A stretch of 64,000 bases of DNA. It comes from an uncultured bacterium (GTDB taxonomy: Bacteria; Verrucomicrobiota; Kiritimatiellia; RFP12; UBA1067). Every line of letters starts with the position of its first letter. The first letter of the stretch is position 1. The position numbers and the translations under genes are program-made. Below the pieces are notes generated by a model, which made no database searches, was not told the origin of the DNA, and worked only from the letters and a program-made list of their open reading frames with translations. The stretch spans positions 9,369 to 73,368 of the forward strand of contig CACXRO010000017.1 in assembly GCA_902770045.1 (NCBI GenBank), given 5' to 3'. Positions 1,169 to 15,834 of the stretch are shown piece after piece.

Positions 1169-2122
1169 ATGATGACGATCTACAGATGGGACAATGGAGC
1201 TCTCCGTGAGGCCACGGAGTTCTCGCCCTCGTGCTGGATAAACCTCGTCGAGCCGTCCACCACCGAGCTCGAGTCGGTGCTTTCCTTCAGCTCGGTGCCA
1301 CGCGACTTCCTCACCGACCCGCTCGACGCCGGCGAGAGACCGCGCTTCGACTGGGAGGACGACGCGATCATCCTCATCGTCCACGTGCCGATGGTCGAGC
1401 CCGAGGCCGAGGACGACGGCTGGACGATCCCCTACCGCACCGTCCCGCTCGGCATCATCCTCTGCCCGGGGACGGTGATCACCGTCTGCAGCGCGCGCAC
1501 CCCGGTCACCGCGGCGTTCCTCGACCAGATCCGCCGCGTCTGCCCGCCGTCCGACCGCTACCGCTTCGCCTTCCGCCTCCTCTGGCACGCCGGCGTCCTC
1601 TTCCTCCGCTACATCAACGACATCCACCAGCGCACCGCGGCGATCGAGGACGAGCTGCACGAGTCGATCTCCAACGAGTCGATCCTCAAGCTCTTCCAGA
1701 TCGAGAAGGCGCTCGTCTACTTCACCACCTCGCTCAAGGCCGACACCATCGCCCTCGCCCGCGCCAACACCGCGCGGCAGCTGACGCTCTCCGAGGACGA
1801 CCGCGACTCGCTCGAGGACGCGATGGTCGAGTACCAGCAGGCGCTGGAGACGGCGACAATCCACGCGAACATCCTCAACGGCACACTCGACACCTTCGCC
1901 TCGCTCATCAACAACAACCTCAACAACGTGATGAAGTACCTGACGGCGGCGACGATTTTGCTTGCGGTGCCGACGCTGGTGGCGTCCATCTACGGCATGA
2001 ACATCAACCTGCCGTTCCAGGGCCACGTGAACGCCTTCGCCATCGTGATGGGTCTTTCCGGGGTGCTGGCGGCGGTGATCGGCGCAATCTTCTACCTGCT
2101 CTCCCGCGCGCGCAAGTTCTGA
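1169..2122 (+). CDS. corA: CorA-family Mg2+/Co2+ transporter
   Basis: WINLVEP N-terminus, two C-terminal TM helices and the YGMN signature. TGGTATAAT promoter at about 1137-1145. Confidence 0.92.
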   Translation: MMTIYRWDNGALREATEFSPSCWINLVEPSTTELESVLSFSSVPRDFLTDPLDAGERPRFDWEDDAIILIVHVPMVEPEAEDDGWTIPYRTVPLGIILCPGTVITVCSARTPVTAAFLDQIRRVCPPSDRYRFAFRLLWHAGVLFLRYINDIHQRTAAIEDELHESISNESILKLFQIEKALVYFTTSLKADTIALARANTARQLTLSEDDRDSLEDAMVEYQQALETATIHANILNGTLDTFASLINNNLNNVMKYLTAATILLAVPTLVASIYGMNINLPFQGHVNAFAIVMGLSGVLAAVIGAIFYLLSRARKF

Positions 2123-3051
2123 TGGGCTCCGGCGCGCGAGGTTTGTCGCTCATGAGCGGCGGGCTCGACAGCCAGCTCGCGGTGCGCGTCCTCGAGCGCG
2201 CCGGCGCCGAGGTGGAGTGCGTCGCGTTCGAAAGCCCGTTCTTCTCCGCCGACGCGGCCCGCCGCGCCGCCGCGGCGCTCGGCGCGAAGCTGCGCGTCGT
2301 GGACTTCACCGCCGACATCATTTCGCTCGTCAAGTCTCCGCCCCACGGCTTCGGCGGCGCGATGAACCCGTGCATCGACTGCCACGCGGCGATGATCCGC
2401 CGCGCCGGCGAGATGATGGCCGCGGAGGGGCTCGACTTCGTCGCCACCGGCGAGGTGCGCGGACAGCGGCCGATGAGCCAGAACGCGCAGTCGCTCCTGA
2501 CGGTCGAGAAGGCGTCGGGGCTGAAGGGGCGGCTGGTGCGCCCGCTGAGCGCGAAGCTGCTGGAGCCGACCATCCCCGAGCTGGAGGGCAAGCTCGACCG
2601 CGAGCGGCTGCTCGACATCTCGGGCCGCTCCCGCGAGCGGCAGATCGCGCTCGCCGCGGAGTTCGGCATCGTCGACTACCCGAGCCCCGCCGGCGGGTGC
2701 AAGCTCACCGAGGAGGCGTTCTCGCGGCGGCTCGACGACCTGATGCGCCACGAGGGGCTCGACGACCTCGGCCTCGTGGGGATGCTCAAGTACGGACGCC
2801 GGTTCCGCCTGGAGGGCGGCAGCCTGGTGGTGCTCGGACGCGACCGCGGCGAAAACGAGTTCCTCGAGAGTTTCCGGTTTAATGGCTCGCGCCTGTTCCG
2901 TCCTTCCGGCGACAGGATCGGCGCGACGGCGTTCGTCCCCCGCCTCGCTTCGCCGGAGGACGCGGCGACGGCGCAGGCGATCGTCGACGCCTACGCGAAG
3001 GGGACTGTCCCCGCCGACCGCGAGACGTTCCGGCGCTGGCAGATCATTTAG
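2122..3051 (+). CDS. PP-loop tRNA sulfurtransferase (ThiI/MnmA-like, DUF814-type C-terminus)
   Basis: SGGLDS PP-loop, NPCIDCH, ATGEVRGQRPMSQ and PSPAGGC motifs. ATG overlaps the corA stop. True start lies inside ORF 1231..3051. Confidence 0.8.
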   Translation: MGSGARGLSLMSGGLDSQLAVRVLERAGAEVECVAFESPFFSADAARRAAAALGAKLRVVDFTADIISLVKSPPHGFGGAMNPCIDCHAAMIRRAGEMMAAEGLDFVATGEVRGQRPMSQNAQSLLTVEKASGLKGRLVRPLSAKLLEPTIPELEGKLDRERLLDISGRSRERQIALAAEFGIVDYPSPAGGCKLTEEAFSRRLDDLMRHEGLDDLGLVGMLKYGRRFRLEGGSLVVLGRDRGENEFLESFRFNGSRLFRPSGDRIGATAFVPRLASPEDAATAQAIVDAYAKGTVPADRETFRRWQII

Positions 3052-3054
3052 GCG

Positions 3055-3753
3055 ATGAAGACGGCGCGCGGACACAAGGTCGGGTTTTTCGACAGCGGGG
3101 TCGGGGGACTGAGCGTCCTCCGCGCGTTTCAGGCGCTGTGTCCGGAAGTGGAGACGGAGTATCTCGCCGATTCGGCGCATGCGCCCTACGGAAACCGTCC
3201 GGCGGAGGAGATTGCGCGCCTCTCGGAGGCGAACGCCGAGGAGCTGATCGCGCGCGGCTGCGACGTGGTGGTGGTGGCCTGCAACACCGCGACGGCGGCG
3301 GCGATCGACCTGCTGCGGCGGAAGCACCCGGAGATTCCTTTTGTCGGCATGGAGCCGGCGGTCAAGCCTGCCGCGCTGCGCTCGAAGTCAGGCGTCGTGG
3401 CGGTGCTGGCGACGGCCGGCACCTTCAGGGGCCGGCTCTACAACGAGACGAAGGGACGCTACGCCGGCGGGGTGAAGGTAATCGCGGCGGTGGCGGACGA
3501 GTTCGTCGCTGAGGCGGAGCGCATCAGAGGCGCACCTTACGCCGAATGGACCGAGGCCGACCGCGCGCGCATCATCGGGATCGTCCGTGCGCGGGTGGAG
3601 CCGCTTCTTGACGCGGGTGCGGACGTGATCGTGCTCGGCTGCACCCATTTCCCGCTGCTCATCGGCGCGATCGAGGAGGTCTGCGCCGGCCGCGCCGAGG
3701 TAATCGACCCCTCGCCGGCCGTCGCGCGCCAGATCCGCCGCGTCCTCGCTTAG
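3055..3753 (+). CDS. murI: Glutamate racemase
   Basis: FDSGVGGLSV, ACNTA and LGCTHFP catalytic motifs. Confidence 0.95.
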   Translation: MKTARGHKVGFFDSGVGGLSVLRAFQALCPEVETEYLADSAHAPYGNRPAEEIARLSEANAEELIARGCDVVVVACNTATAAAIDLLRRKHPEIPFVGMEPAVKPAALRSKSGVVAVLATAGTFRGRLYNETKGRYAGGVKVIAAVADEFVAEAERIRGAPYAEWTEADRARIIGIVRARVEPLLDAGADVIVLGCTHFPLLIGAIEEVCAGRAEVIDPSPAVARQIRRVLA

Positions 3754-3861
3754 CTTAGTTTCGGCTTGCGTTGTGGTTTGGGGGTGTAACCTTTCCCGGT
3801 CTCGGGTGTAGACAGGGTAGAAAGCGAGCGCCTAAAGGGCGCCAGACGATTTACCCCCCGC

Positions 3862-3892
3862 GCCCCCCGGTTCAACCGGGGGGCCATTTTTT
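3862..3892 (+). terminator. Rho-independent terminator-like hairpin
   Basis: GCCCCCCGG-TTCAA-CCGGGGGGC followed by CATTTTTT, downstream of the corA-murI run. Confidence 0.65.
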
Positions 3893-3950
3893 CGCCGTCG
3901 CGCGCCAGCTCCCCCGCGAGCCGCACCTCCGCGGCGGCTGACGCCTTGTT

Positions 3951-5057
3951 TCATCGACGCAGGAGCCATTCACCGAAAAACGGGCTGACAAAGCGATATT
4001 CGCCGTCGTAGTTGTATATGATGTCTTCGCGTTCAAGTTTCTCGACGGCCTTTTTCACCGATGCCGCATTAAAGATCTGCGCCTCGGCGAGGAATGCGCT
4101 GGAGAATATCTCCTTGCCGCCGCGCTCGGCGATGGTGCGGAGAACGCGCGTCTGCAGTGCCGTAAGCTGCTTGATCGCGAAAGTGAAGTGATCGTGTTCC
4201 CTGGCGAATATGATTGCAAGTGCCTTTTTGATGTCGGATTCCTCGAGTGTCGTTCCGTTGTCGCTCATCTGCCAGAGCGCATCGCAGAGTTCTTGGACAA
4301 AGCCAGGAGTTTCGTGCGCAGTGTGGGCGATGGCGTCGAACACTAGGCGCGGGAGTATTCGTCCGCCGGTGGCAAAGCGCCGCTTTATGAATTCGAAGAA
4401 GTCGTCCGCATCGATGTTTCCGACCTTGAAGGAGGCGGCGGAATGGTAGAACGGGCTGGAATACTTGAAGAATATCTCAGCCATCTTGTTACGAACGCTG
4501 CCGAGGAAAATATACGGAGTGTTTGCGTCGAGTTGGATCCTGGAGCGCAGTACGGCGAGCGTCCTTTCCCCGTCGTCTATGTCGAGTATGTCCTGAAATT
4601 CGTCGAGCAGGACGCATATCTTACGCCGCTTTGTTTGCTCCAGGAGCACGTCAAGCACGGAGTCGAGCGTCGTTGGTTCGGCGGCAACCCGTGCGTCAAC
4701 TGTTACCGTCGGAGAGCCGGATGACGGGTCGATGGAAACAGTCGGCCTGAGGTGCGCAAGCATGCGTAAGGTCTTTGTCGCCCAGCTTTCGGAATCCTCA
4801 AGACGCGCGATGGCGGCGACAAGTCTGCGGCAGACGTCTGCCTGGTCACGCACGCAGAGGAAATCGGCGTGGAAGAGGGCGATGTTTTTCATGTGGCGCA
4901 CGGTTTCGATCACTAGGGAGGTTTTCCCAGTTCTGCGGTCGCCCTGCATGACGACATTCTGTCCGGATTCTATGCGCGAGGCAAGTTCGCGTTCAAGTAC
5001 AGGGCGTGGGCAGAAGAAGTCTCCATTGACTGTGCAGCCGTATCTGAATGGATTCAT
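3951..5057 (-). CDS. AAA+/P-loop ATP-binding protein (archaeal ATPase-like) with C-terminal winged helix
   Basis: Walker A GDRRTGKT, Walker B LLDEFQ, IFLGS motif. Confidence 0.85.
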   Translation of the reverse strand: MNPFRYGCTVNGDFFCPRPVLERELASRIESGQNVVMQGDRRTGKTSLVIETVRHMKNIALFHADFLCVRDQADVCRRLVAAIARLEDSESWATKTLRMLAHLRPTVSIDPSSGSPTVTVDARVAAEPTTLDSVLDVLLEQTKRRKICVLLDEFQDILDIDDGERTLAVLRSRIQLDANTPYIFLGSVRNKMAEIFFKYSSPFYHSAASFKVGNIDADDFFEFIKRRFATGGRILPRLVFDAIAHTAHETPGFVQELCDALWQMSDNGTTLEESDIKKALAIIFAREHDHFTFAIKQLTALQTRVLRTIAERGGKEIFSSAFLAEAQIFNAASVKKAVEKLEREDIIYNYDGEYRFVSPFFGEWLLRR

Positions 5058-5223
5058 AATGGTTTCCTTTTTTTATTCATGTTCGTTATGTCAATTGGTA
5101 TTATACCATTTGGTATTATGCTATTTGGCATAACGTCTGTAGTATAGCATATTTTGATGTACTAGCGCAACTGGGCCATTTTTGAACCGATTCTGATGAC
5201 GCTACCGCGGCAGTTTGCGCGGC

Positions 5224-5317
5224 GCGAAAATCCCTGCCCAACCGGGTGGGGATTTTTGGTATAATTCACTCATCCCGCGAGGCGGAAGACGCGACGCGGG
5301 GTGATAGTCCGGGAAAC
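5224..5317 (+). repeat. Cassette-head repeat R, copy 1 (short): hairpin + TGGTATAAT promoter + leader stem-loop
   Basis: Near-identical to the first ~94 bp of 5918.. and 7741... Confidence 0.9.
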
Positions 5318-5336
5318 CAAGTTGGAGTTGTAGTAA

Positions 5337-5891
5337 ATGGACCAAAGCATAGTTGTCTACGAAAATGGCGATAACCTTCGTCTTCAGGTAAAGACCGATG
5401 GCGAAACAGTATGGCTTACCCAGGAGCAGATGTGTCAACTGTTTGGGCGGAATCAGTCGGTCATTGCTCGGCACATAGCCAACATCTTTAAGGAGGGGGA
5501 GTTGGAGAAAGAAGTGGTATATGCAAAATTTGCATATACCACTCGTCATGGTGCGATTGCTGGCAAAACGCAGATAAAAGAGGTAGGTCTATACAACCTT
5601 GATGTCGTCATCTCCGTGGGCTACCGCGTGAAATCCATACAGGGAACGAGGTTCCGTCAATGGGCCACGCGGATGCTTCGCGAGATGCTGTTGAAGCGAG
5701 TGGACGAGGTTCGGGAGATCGCCAAGTTGCGGCGGCGCATGGATGCCGCGGAAGGCGACATCAAGCAGATCAAGGGCGGCATGAGCTATCTTGTGAAGCA
5801 GCTGTCGGCACCTGAAACCCCGCGCCGCAAGATTGGGTTCGGCGCCAAGCCCGGCGAGACATCGGCAACCCCATACGGCCGCGCCAAGTAG
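5337..5891 (+). CDS. Virulence RhuM-family DNA-binding protein (short form)
   Basis: ETVWLTQEQMCQLF, HIANIFKEGEL, YNLDVVISVGYRVKS, FRQWAT motifs; RRKIGF tail. Confidence 0.85.
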   Translation: MDQSIVVYENGDNLRLQVKTDGETVWLTQEQMCQLFGRNQSVIARHIANIFKEGELEKEVVYAKFAYTTRHGAIAGKTQIKEVGLYNLDVVISVGYRVKSIQGTRFRQWATRMLREMLLKRVDEVREIAKLRRRMDAAEGDIKQIKGGMSYLVKQLSAPETPRRKIGFGAKPGETSATPYGRAK

Positions 5892-5917
5892 CCTCAGAAT
5901 TCGCCAATTTGTACGCT

Positions 5918-6250
5918 GCGAAAATCCCTGCCCAACCGGGCGGGGATTTTTGGTATAATTCACTCATCCCGCGAGGCGGAAGACGCGACGCGGGGTGATA
6001 GTCCGGAAAACGGGCAAGTAGTCAGGCCTCCCCGCGCCATGCGCGGCCGCCGCGAACGCCCCGCCAGACGTTCATCAATGTAGCATCAACGCTACACGTC
6101 GTTCGCACGAAATACGACCAACATTTCAAATCAGAACGGCACCAAGCGCAAATACGCCTGCTTTGGGCGCACTTTGTCTCTGTGTATTCTGATTGAGCCT
6201 TTGGTCGGGCTTCGTGCGAGTGCATGGGATAAGGTGCGCTCTTATTTTAT
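5918..6250 (+). repeat. Cassette-head repeat R, copy 2 (long)
   Basis: Aligns with 7741..8070: first ~200 bp nearly identical, the rest with conserved blocks. Confidence 0.9.
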
Positions 6251-6989
6251 GTATCGAAGGTGGTTTTTCGGCGGCAAAATATTGCGCAAGCAACAAAGGA
6301 AAAATCAAATGAGAAAAGACCCAGATCGCGAATACATGTATTCGCACTACCACCTCGACTGGGGGGAGGACTGGATTCGCACGCCGCGATACGGTTTTCC
6401 CTTGATAAAGCCAACAACACTCGTACCTGAACGTATGGTACCATTCGACAAGATTCGAAAATGGCGGCTTGAAGGAGCATGCGTCGAGTTCCATCTCGCA
6501 GATAGGCGCATAGATTGTGCCTGGTTGCATCCAGAGCGCTACATTGATCATTTGCGGAAGGCAGCATGTGTTGCCACGCCAGACTTTTCGGTTTTGCCTC
6601 GCATGGAGCGGGCGGACGTCATTCACAACGTTTCACGTTCGCTTCGTCTTGGGCGTCATTTCCAGAGCTTCGGGATAGAAGTGCTAATTACGGCTATATG
6701 GGCGCTTCCCGACACATACGACATTTGCTTCGAGGCGTTACCGCGAAACGCAATCCTCCTTGTGTCCACTGTTGGGAGCATGAATGATGTTGCTTCGCGA
6801 GGGATCTTGCGCGACGGATTGAAGGCCTTGTGCGAGCGCAAATCACCCAAAGGACTTGTTATCTATGGGAAGATGCCGAACTTAGATTTCGACATTCCGG
6901 TTGTCAGGCACTTTGAGCGATGTAATCCTACCGTTGATGGCGGATATCAGCCGGAACTTCAATTCAATTCAAAGGAAGGATGGTGCTGA
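6249..6989 (+). CDS. DUF4417-family protein
   Basis: RYGFPLIKP, VEFHLADRRIDCAW, ATPDFSVLP, ITAIWA...TYDICFEALP motifs. Start codon uncertain (6174, 6249 or 6309). Confidence 0.75.
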   Translation: MYRRWFFGGKILRKQQRKNQMRKDPDREYMYSHYHLDWGEDWIRTPRYGFPLIKPTTLVPERMVPFDKIRKWRLEGACVEFHLADRRIDCAWLHPERYIDHLRKAACVATPDFSVLPRMERADVIHNVSRSLRLGRHFQSFGIEVLITAIWALPDTYDICFEALPRNAILLVSTVGSMNDVASRGILRDGLKALCERKSPKGLVIYGKMPNLDFDIPVVRHFERCNPTVDGGYQPELQFNSKEGWC

Positions 6990-6990
6990 C

Positions 6991-7395
6991 ATGGGCTCAC
7001 GAAGAGAATGGGAATCGTCAAGGCATTTTTCGCTATATTTCGAGAGTCACTACCACAATGTTGCAATGGTCGATGGCGTGAAGGTGCTTCAGTATAACGA
7101 CAGGCCGAACTCCGCGTTGCCAGAGTACGCCAAGACGTCCGAGGCGTATCTGTCAATCAACCGGGAAGGTGAGATTCTACATCTTCGGATATACAAAGAC
7201 CACTTTCCCGTTATGGAGATTGACATTGGCCATTGGCAACATTACGGTAAAAGCAGGGGGTATGTCCATGTCCACGATTATGCCAAAGGCAGTGACGGAT
7301 ATCCGCAACGGCTTTCGCCAGGTAGGGATATCACTCCCGCAGAAGAAGCGAAATATGGTAAAATACTCATGCACATGAAAGGAACGCTCAAATGA
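6991..7395 (+). CDS. Small toxin-like protein with HxH motif (polymorphic-toxin-like)
   Basis: MGSR start, EIDIGH...HVHD motif, RBS AAGGAAGGA, 4-bp overlap with the next gene. Confidence 0.45.
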   Translation: MGSRREWESSRHFSLYFESHYHNVAMVDGVKVLQYNDRPNSALPEYAKTSEAYLSINREGEILHLRIYKDHFPVMEIDIGHWQHYGKSRGYVHVHDYAKGSDGYPQRLSPGRDITPAEEAKYGKILMHMKGTLK

Positions 7396-7721
7396 GAACT
7401 GCATTGGAAAAATTGGAATCAGCCATACAGGCAGAGAATGAAGGGCGTGAACATATGCTTTTTATTCTGTTCAAGTATGGAGGCTTTGAATTTGAATACC
7501 AGGGCCGTTATTATGCATATGTGCGTCCGATCGGAGACTGCCGAGGATGCGTTGAGGACGAGTATGGGTGGAGCGGCTTCGACGAAATGCTCGATGCCAC
7601 CATCACGCAGACGGGCAAGACCGTTCGCGAGATGCTTGCTGAAATTCCAGAACATGCCCTAGAAATCACCTTTGATTCGCCGACCCTGCCGCCTAATGCG
7701 GTTGTTGTCGATGAGGTGTGA
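7392..7721 (+). CDS. Small acidic hypothetical protein (candidate immunity protein)
   Basis: ATGA-coupled to the upstream gene. FEFEYQGRYY and FDEMLDATI...GKTVREML motifs. Confidence 0.45.
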   Translation: MRTALEKLESAIQAENEGREHMLFILFKYGGFEFEYQGRYYAYVRPIGDCRGCVEDEYGWSGFDEMLDATITQTGKTVREMLAEIPEHALEITFDSPTLPPNAVVVDEV

Positions 7722-7740
7722 GGACACAGCGGATAATTCC

Positions 7741-8070
7741 GCGAAAATCCCCGCCCAACCGGGCGGGGATTTTTGGTATAATTCACGCATCCCGCGAGGC
7801 GGAAGACGCGGCGCGGGGTGATAGTCCGGAAAACGGGCAAGTAGTCAGGCCTCCCCGCGCCCCGCGCGGCCGCCGCGAACGCCCCGCCAGACGTCCATCA
7901 ATGTAGCATCAACGCTACACGTCGTTCAGCCAAAATACGACCAATATTTTATTCCAGAACGACCTGTATGTGGAGATGCGCCCAGCTGGGCGCATTTTCC
8001 CTTCATGTATTCTGGAAAGGCCTTTGGTCGGGCTTGGCTGAGTGCATGAGAGGAAATGCGCTCTTTTTAT
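7741..8070 (+). repeat. Cassette-head repeat R, copy 3 (long)
   Basis: Perfect hairpin AAAATCCCCGCCC-AACC-GGGCGGGGATTTT, then TGGTATAAT, then the shared leader. Confidence 0.9.
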
Positions 8071-8210
8071 GCACAAGAATCCCCTTGCGGCGATAAGCGC
8101 TATTGGCAATGGGGACAAAGTTCCACAGCAGGCAAGGAAACGTAGCAGTTATGGCCGTTGCGATAATCGCGACGTCCTTGCTTCCGTTGTCTCCATCTAT
8201 TGGAGGGCAA

Positions 8211-9377
8211 ATGGGTGGTGATAACGTGGATGTAAATGTGTCAAGACATCTAGGAGTTGTTGGACGAGTCAATCTTGGCAGCTTCTATACACCAGCAAAA
8301 TACGTTCGAATAGCTTCGGAGTGGTTGCTTGCGCATGGCATTGGAGATGGTTGGACGATAGCCGATCTTTCATGTGGATACGGAGCGTTCTTTGAGTTGT
8401 CTGAAGTGGAAGGACTGCATGGCTGCCGATATGTTGGCAATGACATAGATCATGATGCGGTTAAAAAGGCAAAAGCGGCGTTTCCGAATGTCAGGTTTTG
8501 CGAATGTAATGCGCTTGTCGATGTTTCGCGGGAGAAATTTGGGATTGGTGCTTGTGACAAGCTTGTAATTGTCGGCAATCCTCCATATAACGATGTCACT
8601 TCGCAGATTAACCAGACCATAAAGAACAATTCGATTCCAATTGATTCGGATTTGAGGACCAGAGATATTGGCATGTCATCCTTGCTGGCGTATGATAAAC
8701 TTAAAGCAGAGTATGTTTTAGTGCTTCACCCTTTATCGTACATGATTAAAAAAGCAAACTTCTCCGTAACTCAGAAGTTCTTCAGAAATTATGAACTTGT
8801 TGAGCATGTGGTTTTTTCAAGTCAGGAGTTTGCGGGGACTTCAAGGCTTGCCGGATTTCCGGTTATTGTTGCTATGTACAGGAGAAATGAAGGCAACGGA
8901 CTTAGTTATGCAGATGTTTTCAGAATTTGGTTCCATACCGTCGATGGCAAATCATTTTCTCTTTCCGGATTTGACTATGTCACAGATGAGATAGACAAAT
9001 ACCCTGGCAAACAAAGATACACACCTGAAATCTTGTTCTATACTATGCGCGACATCAACGCTTTGCGGCGCAGTCGGACATTCTTGCAGGAGCGAATAGC
9101 AAATGCGATTGATGTCAATCCGGAAAAACTTGCTTACTACTGTTATGTTGATTGTTTCAAGCGATATGCAGAAGTGCCATATTATCTTGGCAATTTCAAT
9201 GTCCCTTTTGTTCGGGCAGAGTTCGCGTCAATATCAAATGATGTGACGAGGGTCTCAATGCACGGACATCCTGAAATTTTCGGTAGCAAGCAGGAGCCAG
9301 ATGCTTGCACTGTGGCAAGGGTTAAACAGTACATCGCAAAGGCATTACAAGGAAAGGAAACAAACAATGCAAACTGA
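8211..9377 (+). CDS. N6-adenine DNA methyltransferase, M.PabI-like
   Basis: RVNLGSFYTP, motif I DLSCGYGAF, motif IV GNPPY. RBS GGAGGG before ATG 8211. Confidence 0.85.
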   Translation: MGGDNVDVNVSRHLGVVGRVNLGSFYTPAKYVRIASEWLLAHGIGDGWTIADLSCGYGAFFELSEVEGLHGCRYVGNDIDHDAVKKAKAAFPNVRFCECNALVDVSREKFGIGACDKLVIVGNPPYNDVTSQINQTIKNNSIPIDSDLRTRDIGMSSLLAYDKLKAEYVLVLHPLSYMIKKANFSVTQKFFRNYELVEHVVFSSQEFAGTSRLAGFPVIVAMYRRNEGNGLSYADVFRIWFHTVDGKSFSLSGFDYVTDEIDKYPGKQRYTPEILFYTMRDINALRRSRTFLQERIANAIDVNPEKLAYYCYVDCFKRYAEVPYYLGNFNVPFVRAEFASISNDVTRVSMHGHPEIFGSKQEPDACTVARVKQYIAKALQGKETNNAN

Positions 9378-10137
9378 TGAAGCAAAGGTAGTGAATGCGA
9401 AAGGCGGACTGTTCGTCAATCTTCCTCTCACGAAGCCGACGGGTAAGATTCGTGTCAAGAGACGGAGCTTCTTTTCGGAGTACGGAGAACCGATTGCACC
9501 GAGAAGGGTTAAACTGACGCAATCGTGCTATGTGGAATGGCAGATCGGGTACGACCTCCTCGTCAGCCATGAGAACGCAGAAAAGACCAGTTTAAAGGGC
9601 CTAACCTTCATCAACTACAAGGGGGAGAAAAAATATGCATATGAATTGAGCGAAATTGTCTTCTACGCACATCGTCATGGGCTTATCAAAGATGCAGATA
9701 TTGCGCGCTGCATTGCGGATATCCGCGCCGTACCGGACAAGAATACATTTGAAGAGACATCGTCCATAAGCCGAACTAATCCCAAAGAGGTGACAATTAA
9801 TGGCTTGGCGTTTTATGAAATGAACGTTTCATATCCGCTGTTTGTTCACAGGTTCGGGCGGTACGAGATTTTTGCGGAGATCATGATTCGAGAGAAGCAG
9901 CGCGCAGTTGGAACTCAGGCAATGCTGTATGTGTGCTTGCCTATAACGGCAATGAATTTCAGCAGACAGGCGATAGGACGGACAATGGATGCGAAGGAGT
10001 GTGCCGAGTGGCGGATAGGCCGAGAGGAGGCCGCTCTGGCCTTGGAGCTGTTTCGAGTGTTTGGAATGCTTTCCCCAAAACACAGGCATGATGTCATGTC
10101 TATACTTGAAATGCTGTTTCCTGAGACCACGCGGTAG
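9367..10137 (+). CDS. R.PabI-family restriction DNA glycosylase (HALFPIPE fold)
   Basis: LPLTKPTGKIRVKRR..F.EYG.P and YVEWQIGYD match the R.PabI family as recalled. Coupled to the MTase. Confidence 0.8.
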   Translation: MQTDEAKVVNAKGGLFVNLPLTKPTGKIRVKRRSFFSEYGEPIAPRRVKLTQSCYVEWQIGYDLLVSHENAEKTSLKGLTFINYKGEKKYAYELSEIVFYAHRHGLIKDADIARCIADIRAVPDKNTFEETSSISRTNPKEVTINGLAFYEMNVSYPLFVHRFGRYEIFAEIMIREKQRAVGTQAMLYVCLPITAMNFSRQAIGRTMDAKECAEWRIGREEAALALELFRVFGMLSPKHRHDVMSILEMLFPETTR

Positions 10138-10185
10138 TAACTGTGGAGATGCTCTCATTTCAACAAATGAGGAATGATTGACGTC

Positions 10186-10335
10186 CTAGTCCACGCATGA
10201 AATGGCATCTTGAATTTCACCAATAAGAGAACGAAACTCATCTGAGTAACGGATGTCGGGGTCAATGGAAATACTCTTGGTCTTATAAAGTTCAAGTAGC
10301 TTTTCTGCGAGTGTAAGAAAAAGGTAGTCGTTCAT
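10186..10335 (-). CDS. 49-aa small ORF or truncated gene (MNDYLFLTLAEKLLELYKTK...)
   Basis: Own TATAAT at about 10360-10365 and an AAGGAAAA RBS on the minus strand. Below the ORF-track length cutoff. Confidence 0.35.
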   Translation of the reverse strand: MNDYLFLTLAEKLLELYKTKSISIDPDIRYSDEFRSLIGEIQDAISCVD

Positions 10336-10593
10336 TGTTGGTTTTCCTTGGTGTGCGAATATTATAACATAAAGATCGTTGGCTGTGCATAGGTCGCGCC
10401 GGGCTATAGATCCATTTCACGGTGAATGGAAAATCGCGGCGATGACCGCGGCAGATTGCGCGGCGGTTTTGGTATAATACGCATCGTTGTCTGGAGCAAG
10501 TGCAATGAACGGAACAACCATTTCAGGGGTGGCAGATGCCGGCTCGATGCGGACGCGAATCCTCGCGATCCGCGCGGTTTGCGCTCTCTGCGG

Positions 10594-11547
10594 ATGACGA
10601 CGGCGGCGATGGCAGGCGGATGGACAGCGGTTGGCGTGGTGATCCTTGTCTGGGGAATGACGTTCGCGTCGACGCGGGCGCTGCTCGCTGACTTCTCCGC
10701 GCTTGAAATCCTCCTGCTCAGGTTTTCGCTCGCATACGCCGCGCTCAGGATTGCGTTCGGGCGGTTCTGCGGACACAGGGAGCCCGAACGCCGCGGCGAC
10801 GGATGGCTGTTCGCGGCGATGGGACTCACTGGGATTGTCGCCTACCAGTTCCTCGAAAACTGCGCCATCTACTACACGAACGCGAGCAATGTCGCCATCC
10901 TCGTCTCCTTCGGTCCGGTCGTCACCGCGGTGATGGCGCGGATGCTGTCCGACGACCGCTCGCTTTCGCCGCGGCTCGTCGCCGGCTCGCTGGTCGCCGT
11001 CGCCGGCGTGGCGCTTGTGAGCCTCAACGACGTGGCGGTGTTCGAGCTGAGGCCGCTCGGGGACCTGATGGCGCTTGCCGCGATGGCATGCTGGGGGCTG
11101 TACTCGGTGCTGCTCGACGCGGCGAACCGGCGCGGAGTTCCGCCGGTCGTCGCCGTTCGCCGCGCCTTCGGGTGGTCGCTGGCGATGATGGCGCCGTTCG
11201 CTCTGTGGGGAATGACGGAGTCCGGTACCTGCGCGCTCGACGGCTCGTTCGCGATCATCCTCGACGCCCAGACCAACCTGGACCGGTTCCTCGACCCCGT
11301 CAACTGGATGAACTTAGTCTTTCTCGGCGTTCTCGCCTCCGCGGCGAGCTTCGTCCTCTGGAGCGCGGTGTGTGGTAGGCTTGGGGTGGTCAAGACCACG
11401 ATATCGCTTTATCTCACTCCGCTGGTCGGAGTTGCGTTCGCGACGGTGTTTCTCGGCGAGCAGGTGACGTGGCTCGAGGCAGCCGGAGGGTGCGTCATCC
11501 TTGTCGGCGTGGCGTTCGCGACGAAGGCGAAGGGAGGCGGGAAGTGA
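10594..11547 (+). CDS. DMT/EamA-family transporter
   Basis: About 10 hydrophobic helices; two EamA repeats (ILVWGMTF; YLTPLVGVAFATVFLGE). Confidence 0.9.
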   Translation: MTTAAMAGGWTAVGVVILVWGMTFASTRALLADFSALEILLLRFSLAYAALRIAFGRFCGHREPERRGDGWLFAAMGLTGIVAYQFLENCAIYYTNASNVAILVSFGPVVTAVMARMLSDDRSLSPRLVAGSLVAVAGVALVSLNDVAVFELRPLGDLMALAAMACWGLYSVLLDAANRRGVPPVVAVRRAFGWSLAMMAPFALWGMTESGTCALDGSFAIILDAQTNLDRFLDPVNWMNLVFLGVLASAASFVLWSAVCGRLGVVKTTISLYLTPLVGVAFATVFLGEQVTWLEAAGGCVILVGVAFATKAKGGGK

Positions 11548-11822
11548 AGAAGGCCATTGTCATTGCATCATTGCTGCTTGCCGCGGCGGTTTGCCATGCG
11601 GCAGGGCAAAAGTCTGCCGCGGCGACGAACGCGGTGCCGGAGAGCGCTTTTGCGGCGACGAACGCAGTGCCGACGAAGAAGAAGGCGTCCGCGCAGCAGC
11701 GCCCGCAGTGCGCGGCAACCACGCTGTCCGGCGGACGCTGCCGCCGCCGCGCAGCCGTCGGATCCATATACTGCCGCCAGCACGAGGCCATAATGCGCCG
11801 CCGCCAGGAGCAGGGGCAGTAG
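11544..11822 (+). CDS. Small secreted protein with C3H zinc-finger-like motif
   Basis: GTG start overlaps the upstream stop. Signal peptide KKAIVIASLLLAAAVCHA; QCAATTLSGGRC...YCRQH. Confidence 0.6.
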   Translation: MKKAIVIASLLLAAAVCHAAGQKSAAATNAVPESAFAATNAVPTKKKASAQQRPQCAATTLSGGRCRRRAAVGSIYCRQHEAIMRRRQEQGQ

Positions 11823-12014
11823 TATCACTGTGTAGCAAAACCGCGCCTCCGCGGCACTTTTCGCAGCGGATTGGATTTCGTCCGCACCGTAATCTCCGCG
11901 GCAGTTTGCGCGGCGAATTTTTGTGTAGTTTTGAGGGGGTTGAATCGCAGAAAACCCTTTATTTTCAAGGGCGGAAATGGTATAATACACATATCAAAAC
12001 GAAAGGATAATGAC

Positions 12015-12977
12015 ATGAAAGAAACCGCCCCAAAACGCTGTACGCTGAAGCTGAAGTTCTGGAAGGAAGGCGCCGAGGAAGACGCTCTGGAAGGCATCAT
12101 GACGACGGACTCGCTCCGCGCCGCACGGACAGAGTTTCGTCGCAAGATGCGCGCCCTGCTCCCTTACGACGCGCTGTCGCGCAATCTGCAGCGGGATATC
12201 GTCCAGTGCGGATATGTCGTTGCGGCTGGTCACTTCGTGAACGACACCGACCGCTTTGCGATGCTGCTGATCGACCAGAAGCATTTGGTCGAGAATCCGA
12301 CCATGGTTGCGTTCACCCTCTACGACAACGGCCACCGCATTCAGCTCTTCGAGCATGCGGACGGTGCACTGAAGTCAGAGGAGGATGATGGCGACAAGAA
12401 CGAGATGCCAGTCATCACCGAGGAGAATCCGGACAAGCCGAGCGCGAGCTACGACTGCGAGGCAATCGCCTGTGAGGAGGCAGAGGAATGCCTTGCGCGC
12501 GCAGACAGTCTGATATCAGATTTTCTGTCCGGCGAAGAGAATCTGGATGGCGAGGTGATCGACGAGGAACGCCTCGTCAGCGAGCTCGACTGCATACACT
12601 CCGAGCTGGGAGAATATGACGAAGAGGGGTGGCTCGGCTACCGCGATGCGATGGACGAAATTTCCAACCGGCTGTGGCAGAACGGCGTGGCATGGCCGCA
12701 GCAGCTCCCCTACTGGTCATGGGCGGATGTGGTCAGACCAGAGGACCTCAAGCGTGAGATCAGCCAGACTTGTCTGTTCAGAGACGACCTGCTGGAGATT
12801 CGCAGATACGCGGACGAGCTGAAATGCACCTTCAAGGAGGGGGTTCACAAGCTGATCGAGCATGCGCAGGCCACGCTGGCCGAATTCCCCAAGCCAGAGC
12901 CGCCGGAGCCAGAGGAAGATTCGAATGGCTCCCGCAAGAAAAAGTCCACGAAAAGAACAACTGCGAAACGCCGCTGA
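12015..12977 (+). CDS. Acidic hypothetical protein
   Basis: TGGTATAAT at about 11979, RBS AAAGGA, 320-codon ORF with basic tail. No family recognised. Confidence 0.7.
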   Translation: MKETAPKRCTLKLKFWKEGAEEDALEGIMTTDSLRAARTEFRRKMRALLPYDALSRNLQRDIVQCGYVVAAGHFVNDTDRFAMLLIDQKHLVENPTMVAFTLYDNGHRIQLFEHADGALKSEEDDGDKNEMPVITEENPDKPSASYDCEAIACEEAEECLARADSLISDFLSGEENLDGEVIDEERLVSELDCIHSELGEYDEEGWLGYRDAMDEISNRLWQNGVAWPQQLPYWSWADVVRPEDLKREISQTCLFRDDLLEIRRYADELKCTFKEGVHKLIEHAQATLAEFPKPEPPEPEEDSNGSRKKKSTKRTTAKRR

Positions 12978-13049
12978 CGCGGCACCTTGCGCGGCACTTT
13001 GCGATCTTTGTGTTCTTTGTGGCTAAAACAAAACAGATTCCCGTGGAGA

Positions 13050-14417
13050 CTATCGGCCGAGGACGCGGTCGGCGAAGTCGAGCATCCACTTCCAGTCGTG
13101 ACCGGAGATGCCGTGGGCGCCGCCGCGGCGGACGTAGCCGAGGCGCTCGCCGATCAGCGCGGTCGAGTAGTTCGGCGGGAAGTCGCCCTCCGGCAGACCC
13201 TTGCCGCAGAGCATTTTCCACGCCGGCGACGCGGCGCGGCAGGCGAGGTACTCACCCCTGGTGTCGAACCATTCGCTGTTGAAGCCCTCCACGAGCAGCG
13301 CGCGCGGCGCGATCGACGCGAGGAGCAGGTGCTGGTCGAAGGGCATAGCCTGCTCGTTGTCGATGTACTTCGCGTAGGCCGCGCAGTACCAGTGAGGGAA
13401 CATCTGCATCTCGGTGGAGACGTTCTCGCCGAAGTCGCGCTTGGCGAGCGGACAGCCGCCGCCGCCGGTCTGGTTGGGGACGCACACGGCGAAGCGCTCG
13501 TCGCGCGAGGCGGCGAGCAGGGCGGACTTCGCGAGGCGAGAGGATCCGGTCACGACGCACCGCTTCGCGTCGATCTCGGCGATGCGCTCGGCGAGGTCGA
13601 GTCCGCGCGAGAGCGTCCACGCCCACGCCCCGAGGGCCGTGGTGTTGTCGCTCCGCTTCGGGTCGCGCTTCGGCCAGAGCTCGAAGATCCGGGTGTAGGC
13701 GAAGTCCGGCGGGAGTTTGAAGCACGCCTCGGCGTCCGGCGAGACCTGGGCGTAGCAGGCGGTCAGGAGCGCGTAGCCGCGGGCGACGACGAAGTCGGCG
13801 GGGACGGTGGTGCGCGAGCGCGAGTCGCGGCCGAAGCCGCGGTTCTCCTCGCGCGGGCCGTTGTCGCGGCCCATGTCCTTCGGCTCGTCGCGGAACCAGC
13901 CGCCGTCTGGCATCGGCACCTCGGGGTCGTTCAGCACCGCGTGGTTGCCGCGGTAGTTGAGCATCAGCACCACCGGCGCCTTGTCCTGGTTCTCGCAGAC
14001 GACGTGTTCGTCGGCGACCTTCGGCTCGTTGCCGGCGATGCGGTTGGGGAGGACGAGCAGCCAGTCGACGAAGGGGCCGGAGCGGTCGCGCCGGAACCAC
14101 ATCCGGTACTGGCGGCGGATGGCGAGGCCGGCGAGGGTCGGGCCCTCCTCCTTCAGCTCGGTCACCACCGCCTCCGGCGCCGGCGGCGGCTGGCCGTACA
14201 TCTCGCGCGAGAAGATGTCGACGATCTCCTGTCGGCGCGCGGGCCAGTCCGCGGCGCCTGCGACCTTGCGTCCGTCGGCGAACGTGAGCGGGTCCTCGAG
14301 GGTGTAGGGGGCGACCTTCCCCTCGTCGTAGTTGGGCTCCCGCGCCGCCGCGGCGAGCGACGAAACGACGGTAACCGCGGAAAAGGCGATCTTTATGGCG
14401 GAGAATTTCGTTTTCAT
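13050..14417 (-). CDS. Secreted CE15-family (glucuronoyl esterase-like) carbohydrate esterase
   Basis: Signal peptide; NYDEGKVAPYTLEDPL, AWAWTLSRGLD, TGSSRLAK nucleophile motif, NQTGGGG, FPHWYC, PFDQH. Confidence 0.8.
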   Translation of the reverse strand: MKTKFSAIKIAFSAVTVVSSLAAAAREPNYDEGKVAPYTLEDPLTFADGRKVAGAADWPARRQEIVDIFSREMYGQPPPAPEAVVTELKEEGPTLAGLAIRRQYRMWFRRDRSGPFVDWLLVLPNRIAGNEPKVADEHVVCENQDKAPVVLMLNYRGNHAVLNDPEVPMPDGGWFRDEPKDMGRDNGPREENRGFGRDSRSRTTVPADFVVARGYALLTACYAQVSPDAEACFKLPPDFAYTRIFELWPKRDPKRSDNTTALGAWAWTLSRGLDLAERIAEIDAKRCVVTGSSRLAKSALLAASRDERFAVCVPNQTGGGGCPLAKRDFGENVSTEMQMFPHWYCAAYAKYIDNEQAMPFDQHLLLASIAPRALLVEGFNSEWFDTRGEYLACRAASPAWKMLCGKGLPEGDFPPNYSTALIGERLGYVRRGGAHGISGHDWKWMLDFADRVLGR

Positions 14418-14420
14418 GAA

Positions 14421-14461
14421 GTGCATTATACCACAAAGGCGGGATTTATGGTATAATGCAC
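14421..14461. promoter_or_regulatory. Back-to-back TGGTATAAT promoters forming a 13-bp perfect inverted repeat
   Basis: GTGCATTATACCA (14421-14433) and TGGTATAATGCAC (14449-14461) between divergent genes. Confidence 0.75.
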
Positions 14462-14520
14462 TCAAATGTATGTGGTGCCTGGTGCATATCCAGGCCATGC
14501 ATTCAACAAGAGGAGGCGAA

Positions 14521-15834
14521 ATGCACAAGAAGAAGGTGTCGCTGGTCGTCAAGATCATGATCGGGTTTCTGCTGGGCACGGTGGCGGGTCTGCTGATAAG
14601 CAGGTTCGGAGGGCCCGAGGCCGTCAAGAAGGTGGTGCCTTTCGTCGCCCCGTTCGGCAACGTGCTGGTGGCGATGCTCAAGATGGTGGTCTACCCGATA
14701 ATCCTCTTCTCGCTGATCCTCGGCGCGGCGTCGCTGCCGCTGAAGCGGTCGGGGCGGGTGGGCGCGAGCGTGCTCGCGTGGTACTTCGTCACCTCGATCC
14801 TGGCCACGGTGTTCGGAGTTGCGCTCGCCTACGCGCTCGATCCGTCGATGGCGTCGGCGAAGTCGGTCGCGAGCGGCTACATGGGCGGCGTCGAGGGGAT
14901 GGCCGCGAAGTCCACCGGCGGCACGTTCGGCGCGTTCTTCGTGGGGCTCTTCCAGAATCCGTTCGCGGCGCTCGCGAGCGGGCAGTTCCTGCCGATCATC
15001 GTCTTCTCGATCGGCTTCGGGCTCTGCGCCCGCTGGCTGCTGGACTCCGCCGGACTCGACGCGCGCACCCGGAACTCGGTGGAGACTCTGGTCGCCTGCT
15101 GCGACGGCGCCCAGAAGGTGGCGTTCAAGCTCATCGACTGCGTGATCCACTACTTCCCGATCGGCGTGTTCGCGCTTTCGCTCGTCAACTTCGCCGAGAA
15201 CGGGGTGCTGCTCTTCGGCCCCTACGCGAAGATCACGCTCTGCGTGGTGGTGGGGGTGGTGGCGATGATCGTAGTCGTCTATCCGCTCGCGATCGCGATC
15301 TTCTGCCGCGAGAACCCGTACAAGGTGCTCCTGCGCCTGCGCGAGCCGATGCTCACCGCCTTCGTGACCCGCTCCTCGGCGGCCACGCTGCCGGTGTCGT
15401 TCAAGGCGGCGGACGCGCTCGGCGTCGACCGCACGCTCTCGTCCTTCTCGCTGCCGATGGGGGCGACGATCAACATGGACGGCGTCTGCGTGCACCTTCC
15501 GGTCTTCGTGATCCTGGCGGCGAACATGTTCGGCCACGACCTCGGCGTGGTGGAGATCGCCACCCTCTGCGTGTCGATCGTCTTCGCCTCGGTCGGCGCG
15601 GGCGGCATCCCCGGCGGTTCGGTGTTCCTGCTCTTCATGGTGCTCGAGAACATGGGCCTGCCGTCCGACCAGGTGGCGATGGTGGTGGCGCTCTGCCTCG
15701 GGATCAACCCGGTCCTCGACATGTTCGAGACCTGCTGCAACGTGACGGGCGACAACGTCTGCACCTACATCGTGGCGAAGCGGGGCGGCCTCATGAGGCA
15801 AGGCGGCGGTTCAGCTCCGCGATCTTCGCCTTGA
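14521..15834 (+). CDS. Dicarboxylate/amino acid:cation symporter (DAACS)
   Basis: MLKMVVYPII, AFVTRSSAATLP, PMGATINMDG, DMFETCCNVTGD motifs. Confidence 0.93.
   Translation: MHKKKVSLVVKIMIGFLLGTVAGLLISRFGGPEAVKKVVPFVAPFGNVLVAMLKMVVYPIILFSLILGAASLPLKRSGRVGASVLAWYFVTSILATVFGVALAYALDPSMASAKSVASGYMGGVEGMAAKSTGGTFGAFFVGLFQNPFAALASGQFLPIIVFSIGFGLCARWLLDSAGLDARTRNSVETLVACCDGAQKVAFKLIDCVIHYFPIGVFALSLVNFAENGVLLFGPYAKITLCVVVGVVAMIVVVYPLAIAIFCRENPYKVLLRLREPMLTAFVTRSSAATLPVSFKAADALGVDRTLSSFSLPMGATINMDGVCVHLPVFVILAANMFGHDLGVVEIATLCVSIVFASVGAGGIPGGSVFLLFMVLENMGLPSDQVAMVVALCLGINPVLDMFETCCNVTGDNVCTYIVAKRGGLMRQGGGSAPRSSP

Follow-up and report, generated by a model that had tools for sequence, protein, structure and literature searches.

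Tandem, unrelated accessory cassettes that are split by a repeated structured element, whose sequence varies while its structure is kept, are known from integrons and from clusters of attC sites lacking integron-integrases (CALINs). We analysed a locus that resembles them in this respect, located in a 64-kb stretch of DNA (the window, to which all coordinates refer unless a contig is named) on contig C17 of the 2.27-Mb assembly of an uncultured Kiritimatiellia bacterium (G000), where three copies of a repeat, R, each precede a different set of genes. Unlike the integron element, however, R is a sense-strand RNA with its own promoter and terminator, so that its cassettes are not promoterless; the array has no intI, attI or common promoter, most R copies are singletons, and the exchange of cassettes looks homologous. 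A different comparison is offered by the mobile promoters described by Nijveen, Matus-Garcia and van Passel (PMC3575422), which are highly similar promoter regions, including RNA motifs, found before non-homologous genes within and between genomes. R heads are likewise near-identical upstream of non-homologous genes, but the R unit is about 330 nt long, is dominated by a covarying RNA, and is tied to restriction-modification (R-M) and defence cargo across the order. Riboswitches, T-boxes and the LoaP-dependent dfn leader, the latter consisting of an RNA hairpin and an intrinsic terminator (PMC12691694), share with R a structured 5' leader followed by an intrinsic terminator that has to be read through, whereas the R leader matches no Rfam family, does not co-occur with a NusG paralogue, and has its supported pairing after the U-tract and not before it.

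Defence islands and hotspots also resemble the locus, with conserved core flanks and strain-specific defence content (R-M genes, a ParE/Phd pair, RhuM), although here one and the same regulatory head stands before each unit and may, in addition, be the source of homology for exchange. R-M systems are toxic if mis-expressed, and the controls known for them, namely C (controller) proteins, methylase autoregulation and antisense RNAs, are in each case particular to the one system that encodes them. The R leader probably serves the same need, that is, safe and ordered expression with the methylase first, but a single leader is common to type I, II, IIG and III systems as well as to other defence genes. 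In the literature searched, we found no description of a leader common to many R-M system types, and nothing on an R-M-associated RNA motif or on restriction-modification in Kiritimatiellae. Below, we argue that R is probably a portable promoter with a structured leader, likely an attenuator of the downstream operon, and not a recombination site.

Repeat R and its structured leader RNA

A repeat search returned a 110-nt unit in three direct copies, at 5208-5317, 5902-6011 (93%) and 7725-7834 (83%), in line with the three copies that an earlier note on this DNA had reported. Copies 2 and 3 remain alike further, over ~330 nt (5918-6250 vs 7741-8070, ~85%). The layout is modular and the same in all three copies, with the order of terminator, promoter and leader that the note had described: a hairpin built from an A-tract, a GC stem and a T-tract leads to an extended -10 box, TGGTATAAT, and this to a leader of ~70 nt. 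The 30-nt hairpin, AAAATCCC(T/C)GCCC-AACC-GGG(T/C)GGGGATTTT, lies at 5227-5256, 5921-5950 and 7744-7773, with folding energies of -23.7 to -28.5 kcal/mol (z about -5 to -6); the box follows directly 3' of it (5257-5265, 5951-5959 and 7774-7782), and the GC stem CATCCCGCG..CGCGGGGTG comes next in each unit. The copy 2 hairpin begins 29 nt past the stop codon of the RhuM gene (5891) and that of copy 3 begins 22 nt past the stop at 7721, close to the 20-27 bp given in the note, which counted from its own start of R. The features of the three units are as follows.

5227..5256, plus strand: R copy 1 hairpin, a predicted bidirectional terminator-like insulator (15-bp stem, -23.7 kcal/mol, z -5.1)
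5257..5265, plus strand: R copy 1 extended -10 box TGGTATAAT, common to all copies
5272..5336, plus strand: R copy 1 short leader, with P1 stem CATCCCGCG/CGCGGGGTG and the GATAGTCCGG motif, then directly GGAG and ATG
5921..5959, plus strand: R copy 2 hairpin and TGGTATAAT (-26.3 kcal/mol)
5966..6247, plus strand: R copy 2 long structured leader RNA, 3' domain 6080-6247 (covariance model R1, 137.7 bits; alignment)
6218-6241, plus strand: R copy 2 terminator-like stem P8, then U-tract (terminator scan)
7744..7782, plus strand: R copy 3 hairpin and TGGTATAAT (-28.5 kcal/mol)
7789..8069, plus strand: R copy 3 long structured leader RNA, 3' domain 7903-8069 with the GTAGC hairpin and helices P3-P7 (covariance model R1, 178.8 bits)
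8040-8063, plus strand: R copy 3 terminator-like stem P8, then U5 (terminator scan)
8069..8102, plus strand: conserved post-terminator box between P8 and the open reading frame (ORF), consisting of ATGCAY, a small hairpin and CGGCG..GCGC (alignment of 60 downstream regions)

Copies 2 and 3 thus carry a long form of the leader, whose 3' domain of ~170 nt comprises the GTAGC hairpin, five stacked helices (P3-P7) that make up one long irregular hairpin, and stem P8 (GAGUGCAU/AUGCGCUC) followed by U5. The internal loops of P3-P7 are conserved in sequence and the apex is near-invariant (GAUGCGCCC-NNNN-GGGCGCAUU), and the copies differ mainly in three stems, through compensatory changes. A fold obtained with RNAalifold from the raw MAFFT alignment of five copies was wrong because the variable stems were misaligned, and it was dropped in favour of a structure that was defined by hand and checked by pair counts. 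Upon counting pairs in 28 sequences from G000 and its relatives, we found 96.2% of cells to be paired, with double changes in 24 pairs (180 such cells), whereas sliding the partner by 1-3 columns as a control left only 34-50% paired. Much the same result came from 69 distinct sequences of public metagenome-assembled genomes (MAGs), a set independent of the first, with 95.8% paired, 27 double-change pairs and 442 such cells. G.U pairs are common and C.A pairs very rare; in the second set, one apical pair is CG in 52 sequences, UG in 16 and another combination in 1. As a DNA palindrome or a bottom-strand hairpin would show the mirror change equally, this asymmetry places the constraint on the sense-strand transcript. 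The conserved domain is a structured RNA on the sense strand. Furthermore, the minimum-free-energy fold of copy 3 (-70.1 kcal/mol, z -6.2) is the covariation structure, and distant homologues keep the fold, the GC stem and the U-tract, with compensatory changes. Rfam 15 gave no match anywhere in the window at gathering score, and none at E <= 1 in 5100-8300.

Conservation continues past the U-tract, where a box of (U)CAUGCAU, a small covarying hairpin and CGGCG..GCGCAG varies solely by transitions, and these leave intact its pairing with the P8 5' arm, GUGCAUGA, which is invariant. In the 5' domain, a crude search for long-range pairing of GUCCGG with CCGGGC/CCAGAC gave 7 perfect matches, compared to a mean of 3 and a maximum of 7 in shuffled sequences. 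Two 'start-stop' motifs are conserved in the leaders of copies 2 and 3, AUGUAG at the GTAGC hairpin (7900-7906) and AUGUAA in P6 (7963-7968), with no Shine-Dalgarno sequence evident. Copy 2 is partly degenerate at the apex (6130-6215), where the GGAGAUGCGCCC arm has been swapped for GCGCAAAUACGCC, and it scores 137.7 bits against 178.8 for copy 3; because of this replaced arm, the copy 2 leader may be impaired.

R is not confined to the window. Elsewhere in G000, we found long copies at C60:365, C3:51086 (minus strand) and C7:2609, short copies at C3:292 (minus strand) and C31:19552, and a headless copy at C1:27544 (minus strand), in which the 3' domain follows a different 5' part. The R heads W1, W2, W3, C60, C3a and C3b are 90-95% identical, and the cargo behind them is unrelated. 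With these copies, and others in relatives, the repeat is not a one-off duplication found here alone with fixed cargo, which the earlier note had named as the outcome that would undo its reading. At two of the sites (C3:1-292, minus strand, and C31:19552-19879), the contig ends with a short R head before the same small hydrophobic ORF (MVIGANSLVVCAFACAALAFAFLL...), a repeated gene at which the assembly breaks.

Genes behind the leader and its proposed control

Using the covariance model R1 of the 3' domain as the homologue search, we found matches in 192 of 301 sampled genomes of the order (26/53 genera), many of them with several copies, and in 71 of 401 sampled genomes of the phylum (36/184 genera). 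Named genomes recovered with an exact-pattern scan were mostly MAGs labelled Kiritimatiellia or Kiritimatiellae bacterium, from rumen, horse, yak, sheep and human gut. The apical-stem pattern was not found in the viral contigs scanned, and a phage origin was rejected on this ground. A same-strand ORF follows the RNA in all 66 public loci with enough sequence. Counting families in 55 first and 42 second ORFs of the public loci, we obtained for the first ORFs mainly DNA methyltransferases, with every class represented, and other R-M genes (EcoRI-type methyltransferase 15, D12 7, C5 5, N6_N4 5, N6_Mtase 4, Eco57I 3, ResIII 3), the remainder including SacI, Mrr and TdeIII nucleases and a few glycosyltransferase, LRR and Sel1 genes, and for the second ORFs GmrSD_N (12), HNH (9), ResIII (5), DpnII (4) and HsdS (3), with NgoPII, AlwI, HaeIII and PabI once each. 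The other long copies of G000 precede a C5 methyltransferase with a MutH-like nuclease, two pairs of EcoRI-type methyltransferase and GmrSD-HNH, and a DUF6079 ATPase. Distant members, in other orders and classes, mostly precede genes of about 1000-1200 codons for very large secreted or surface proteins with TSP3 repeats, RCC1, BACON, cadherin-like or RHS domains. Overall, the element leads accessory genes, and in gut Kiritimatiellia the overwhelming majority of these belong to restriction-modification. The variable stems do not track the type of cargo: this idea was rejected as two EcoRI-type methyltransferase cassettes have different P4 alleles, and it is contradicted also by the leaders of copy 3 and of a DpnII cassette in the congener G003, which are 97% identical in the 3' domain.

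Within the window, the three units carry the following genes.

5337..5891, plus strand: cargo 1, RhuM-like protein (Virulence_RhuM, PF13310, E 2.7e-15), of the PADLOC candidate defence family PDC-S05 (E 3e-46)
6309-6989, plus strand: cargo 2, DUF4417 protein (Pfam PF14386, E 4.8e-33)
6991-7395 and 7392-7721, plus strand: cargo 2, two further overlapping small ORFs of 134 and 109 amino acids
8103-9377 (maximal ORF), plus strand: cargo 3, type II DNA methyltransferase (PADLOC MTase_II, 3.4e-64)
9367-10137, plus strand: cargo 3, R.PabI-family nuclease (Pfam RE_R_Pab1, 8e-35)

The Pfam and PADLOC searches thereby agree with the earlier identification of the cargo as RhuM, DUF4417 and a PabI R-M system. 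The two small ORFs behind the DUF4417 gene (6991-7395 and 7392-7721) match no Pfam or PADLOC family, and for this reason the label of a toxin/immunity pair that they had been given lacks support. As they are placed with DUF4417 under an R-M-type leader, the three genes may form an undescribed defence or modification system.

Promoters of this lineage are conspicuous, consisting of a T-tract followed by TGnTAnAAT. Of 63 homologues, 37 have this sequence in the 220 nt that precede the 3' domain, while an extended -10 box between P8 and the ORF (130 nt) was found in none of 61. The element thus combines two features of a cis-regulatory leader, namely a covarying RNA in the 5' leader with fixed orientation to the ORF, and a predicted intrinsic terminator, scored in both window copies, that precedes the ORF without an internal promoter. 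We propose that the hairpin with its A- and T-tracts probably stops transcription from either side and so insulates the units from their neighbours, and that the extended -10 promoter, which has no clear -35 element, would drive each unit. In copy 1, the short form, the leader passes directly into the ribosome-binding site. Copies 2 and 3 have the long form, in which the cargo would probably be transcribed through P8 by read-through, given that no promoter lies between P8 and the ORF, and since the cargo would have to be transcribed in this manner, the leader is, as judged from its layout, most likely a cis-acting attenuator or antitermination element. Of these, a transcription attenuator that sets or switches operon expression in response to a ligand or factor appears most likely. 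Read-through transcripts may then refold by pairing of the post-terminator box with GUGCAUGA, as the variation of the box is limited to transitions that keep this pairing. Horizontally acquired and potentially toxic operons would in this way be placed under one lineage-wide RNA control. The claim that R is a self-contained expression head before unrelated conflict genes is supported by these data.

Some points weigh against an attenuator of R-M operons. The transcription start, the termination at P8 and the read-through are all predicted from sequence. A candidate upstream antiterminator, formed by CAUGUAUUC with GAGUGCAUG, has one invariant side and hence gives no covariation signal, and 'UCC' variants break one of its pairs. 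The pairing of GUGCAUGA with the box past the U-tract, where the transitions are wobble-compatible only, lies downstream of the terminator, and with its partner in that position it fits the classical attenuator design poorly. Finally, the role of the leader is not specific to restriction-modification, because distant members precede surface proteins.

R-M and other defence genes and giant surface-protein genes are classic contingency loci. Tentatively, the phylum-wide structured leader, which is not in Rfam, could be a common RNA switch for unrelated R-M and defence operons and, in its distant members, for giant surface-protein genes, that also provides homology for exchange and thus amounts to a lineage-wide RNA regulon for acquired conflict genes. 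If it is a switch, this would suggest that acquired defence genes are tamed and co-regulated at the level of the host by an orphan class of RNA. Roughly two thirds of the genomes sampled from the order, whose members are gut and rumen bacteria known almost solely from MAGs, have the leader, which is also a practical marker for defence cassettes in Kiritimatiellia.

Turnover of cassettes at the locus

The three units lie in an island that differs between strains.

3940..12977, no strand assigned: variable island between a racemase gene (left) and ORF 12987 (right), both flanks being conserved; wholly replaced in strain G019

Contig C42 of the near-identical strain G019 matches the window over 2133-3939 at 97.4% and over 12978-17795 at 98.5%, whereas the 9 kb between these flanks is entirely different and has only R in common with the window. 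The G019 island contains a minus-strand ParE/Phd pair, an upstream hairpin and R head as in the window (96% identical), and a long leader, together with genes for a UvrD-PD-(D/E)XK helicase-nuclease, an N6_N4 methyltransferase and a 1073-amino-acid TnsA-like/S24 protein. In G031, the left part is the same as in G019 and the leader is intact. The ParE/Phd toxin-antitoxin pair of these two genomes (minus strand; L196 1796-2412 and L158 8400-9000) stands just left of the first R head, at the place where the window has an AAA ATPase gene. Besides this ATPase gene (3951-5057, minus strand), the window island holds an EamA transporter gene (10426-11547) and an ORF at 11871-12977. In the more distant congener G003, one R-headed DpnII-type system lies immediately upstream of an EamA homologue; its leader, nearly identical to that of window copy 3 in the 3' domain as given above, precedes different cargo, and the EamA genes are only ~70% identical. 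The window locus is a defence hotspot at which cassettes are gained, lost and swapped.

The low score of the G019 leader (127 bits) is due to its helices P3, P4 and P5, whose two strands (5' and 3') have ceased to match, a pattern of mismatched stems seen in 2 of 66 leaders. Over its 5' half, the G019 leader is 90% identical to the one that G031 has at this locus, and matches to its 3' half do not exceed 79%. From its sequence, this leader is likely chimeric, as would result if two different leaders had crossed over close to the conserved apex. In a comparison across MAGs, similarity in the 5' part has a median of 0.68 within genomes vs 0.54 between them, compared to 0.81 vs 0.79 for the 3' domain. 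In the paralogous cassettes on C3 and C7, nucleotide homology begins ~33 nt before the -10 box, spans the leader and reaches briefly into the first gene, where it fades, and this comparison revealed no defined 3' end of the cassette. As the heads are alike, the 5' parts are alike within genomes, the G019 leader is mismatched and no 3' end is defined, exchange at the hotspot probably proceeds by homologous recombination (or gene conversion) via the near-identical R heads and leaders, and not by a site-specific reaction. Of the earlier proposal that cassettes can be stacked and swapped by recombination between R copies, the turnover of content at the locus is borne out by G019, while the exchange itself looks homologous. 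The locus would be a tangible example of cassettes exchanged through homology that may come from a regulatory module.

Alternative explanations and further observations

The reading of R as an integron-like site, at which cassettes would be excised, stacked and swapped site-specifically between R copies by a recombinase encoded elsewhere, could draw on the three R-headed cassettes in tandem, on tandem leader pairs 2-4 kb apart in other genomes (e.g., G147:C86, G078:C12 and G205:C19), and on the different island contents of near-identical strains. It is nonetheless very improbable, and the integron-like array proposed in the earlier note is not upheld, because the structure is constrained as a sense-strand RNA that tolerates G.U but not C.A, a promoter is present in every cassette, and R has no recombinase linked to it; in addition, most copies are single and scattered and not arrayed. 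That no recombinase was visible has held up, both among the window ORFs scanned from 1231 to 14456, which contained none, and in a genome-wide PF00589 search, which gave four tyrosine recombinase genes, on C53, C7, C22 and C18 but not on C17, the one nearest to any R copy being about 25 kb away on C7. With its sense-strand constraint and TGGTATAAT in every unit, R does not have the character of an attC site, which is a hairpin of single-stranded DNA located 3' in cassettes that mostly lack promoters; the R'/R'' core motifs were not scored in this comparison. The fading homology of the C3 and C7 cassettes, without a defined 3' end, also speaks against site-specific excision, and the sole recombinant seen breaks inside the leader with loss of stem pairing, which is the pattern of homologous exchange. 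An even slighter probability attaches to the idea that the hairpin acts as single-stranded DNA, as a single-strand promoter or a recombination hairpin, on conjugative or transformation entry, so that methylase is expressed early. Single-strand promoters are known in plasmid leading regions, which gives this idea a precedent, and the long imperfect palindrome does lie just upstream of methyltransferase genes; yet no -35/-10 pair is found within the stem, the upstream promoter and the U-tract terminator frame the element as a transcript, and the element is missing from the viral contigs scanned and sits in chromosomal loci between core genes. The wobble statistics fit RNA as well, though DNA would also tolerate G.T pairs.

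Two further explanations accept a transcript. Processive antitermination of the put, EAR or LoaP type, in which the leader would modify RNA polymerase to pass terminators and Rho sites in low-GC foreign operons instead of working as an on/off attenuator, is unlikely but would suit the accessory cargo, that is, low-GC R-M operons or, in distant members, very long surface-protein genes. The layout resembles that of the LoaP-dependent dfn leader with its RNA hairpin and intrinsic terminator (PMC12691694), and G000 encodes a specialised NusG paralogue. This paralogue, however, is present in 146 of the 301 genomes of the order and does not track the RNA (192/301): family f11, G009 and G185 have many RNA copies and no paralogue, several lineages have the paralogue without the RNA, and no factor gene is linked to the leaders. 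As an obligate partner of the leader, the NusG paralogue was rejected on this distribution. The gene in G000 (C77:5895-6389, L183), which encodes NGN and KOW domains, lies just upstream of a large secreted protein gene and is 100% identical in G019 and G031. We regard it as quite improbable, and more so than antitermination, that the long element stands alone as a small RNA gene (a promoter, an RNA of ~280 nt and a terminator) that acts in trans and neighbours R-M genes through co-transfer. It does have its own promoter and a terminator-like 3' end, and genomes hold multiple copies with differing stem sequences. Against a role in trans, a same-strand ORF starts roughly -120 to +220 nt from the 3' end of the element in every adequate locus, all 61 loci lack a promoter between P8 and the ORF, and the conserved box continues past the U-tract.

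Two observations concern the surroundings of the R units. Between the PabI and EamA genes lies a small ORF on the minus strand (10141-10340), which has its own TG-TATAAT promoter-like site at 10389-10361. The window furthermore contains a second repeated promoter module, in which a hairpin, CCGCGGCAG(A/T)TTGCGCGG, is followed by (T)TTTGGTATAAT, at 5200-5223, 10441-10464, 11844-11867, 11891-11914 and 12972-12995. It heads several unrelated window genes and matches dozens of places in three related genomes, and on account of these many matches the CCGCGGCAG module looks like the standard terminator-plus-promoter layout of the lineage.

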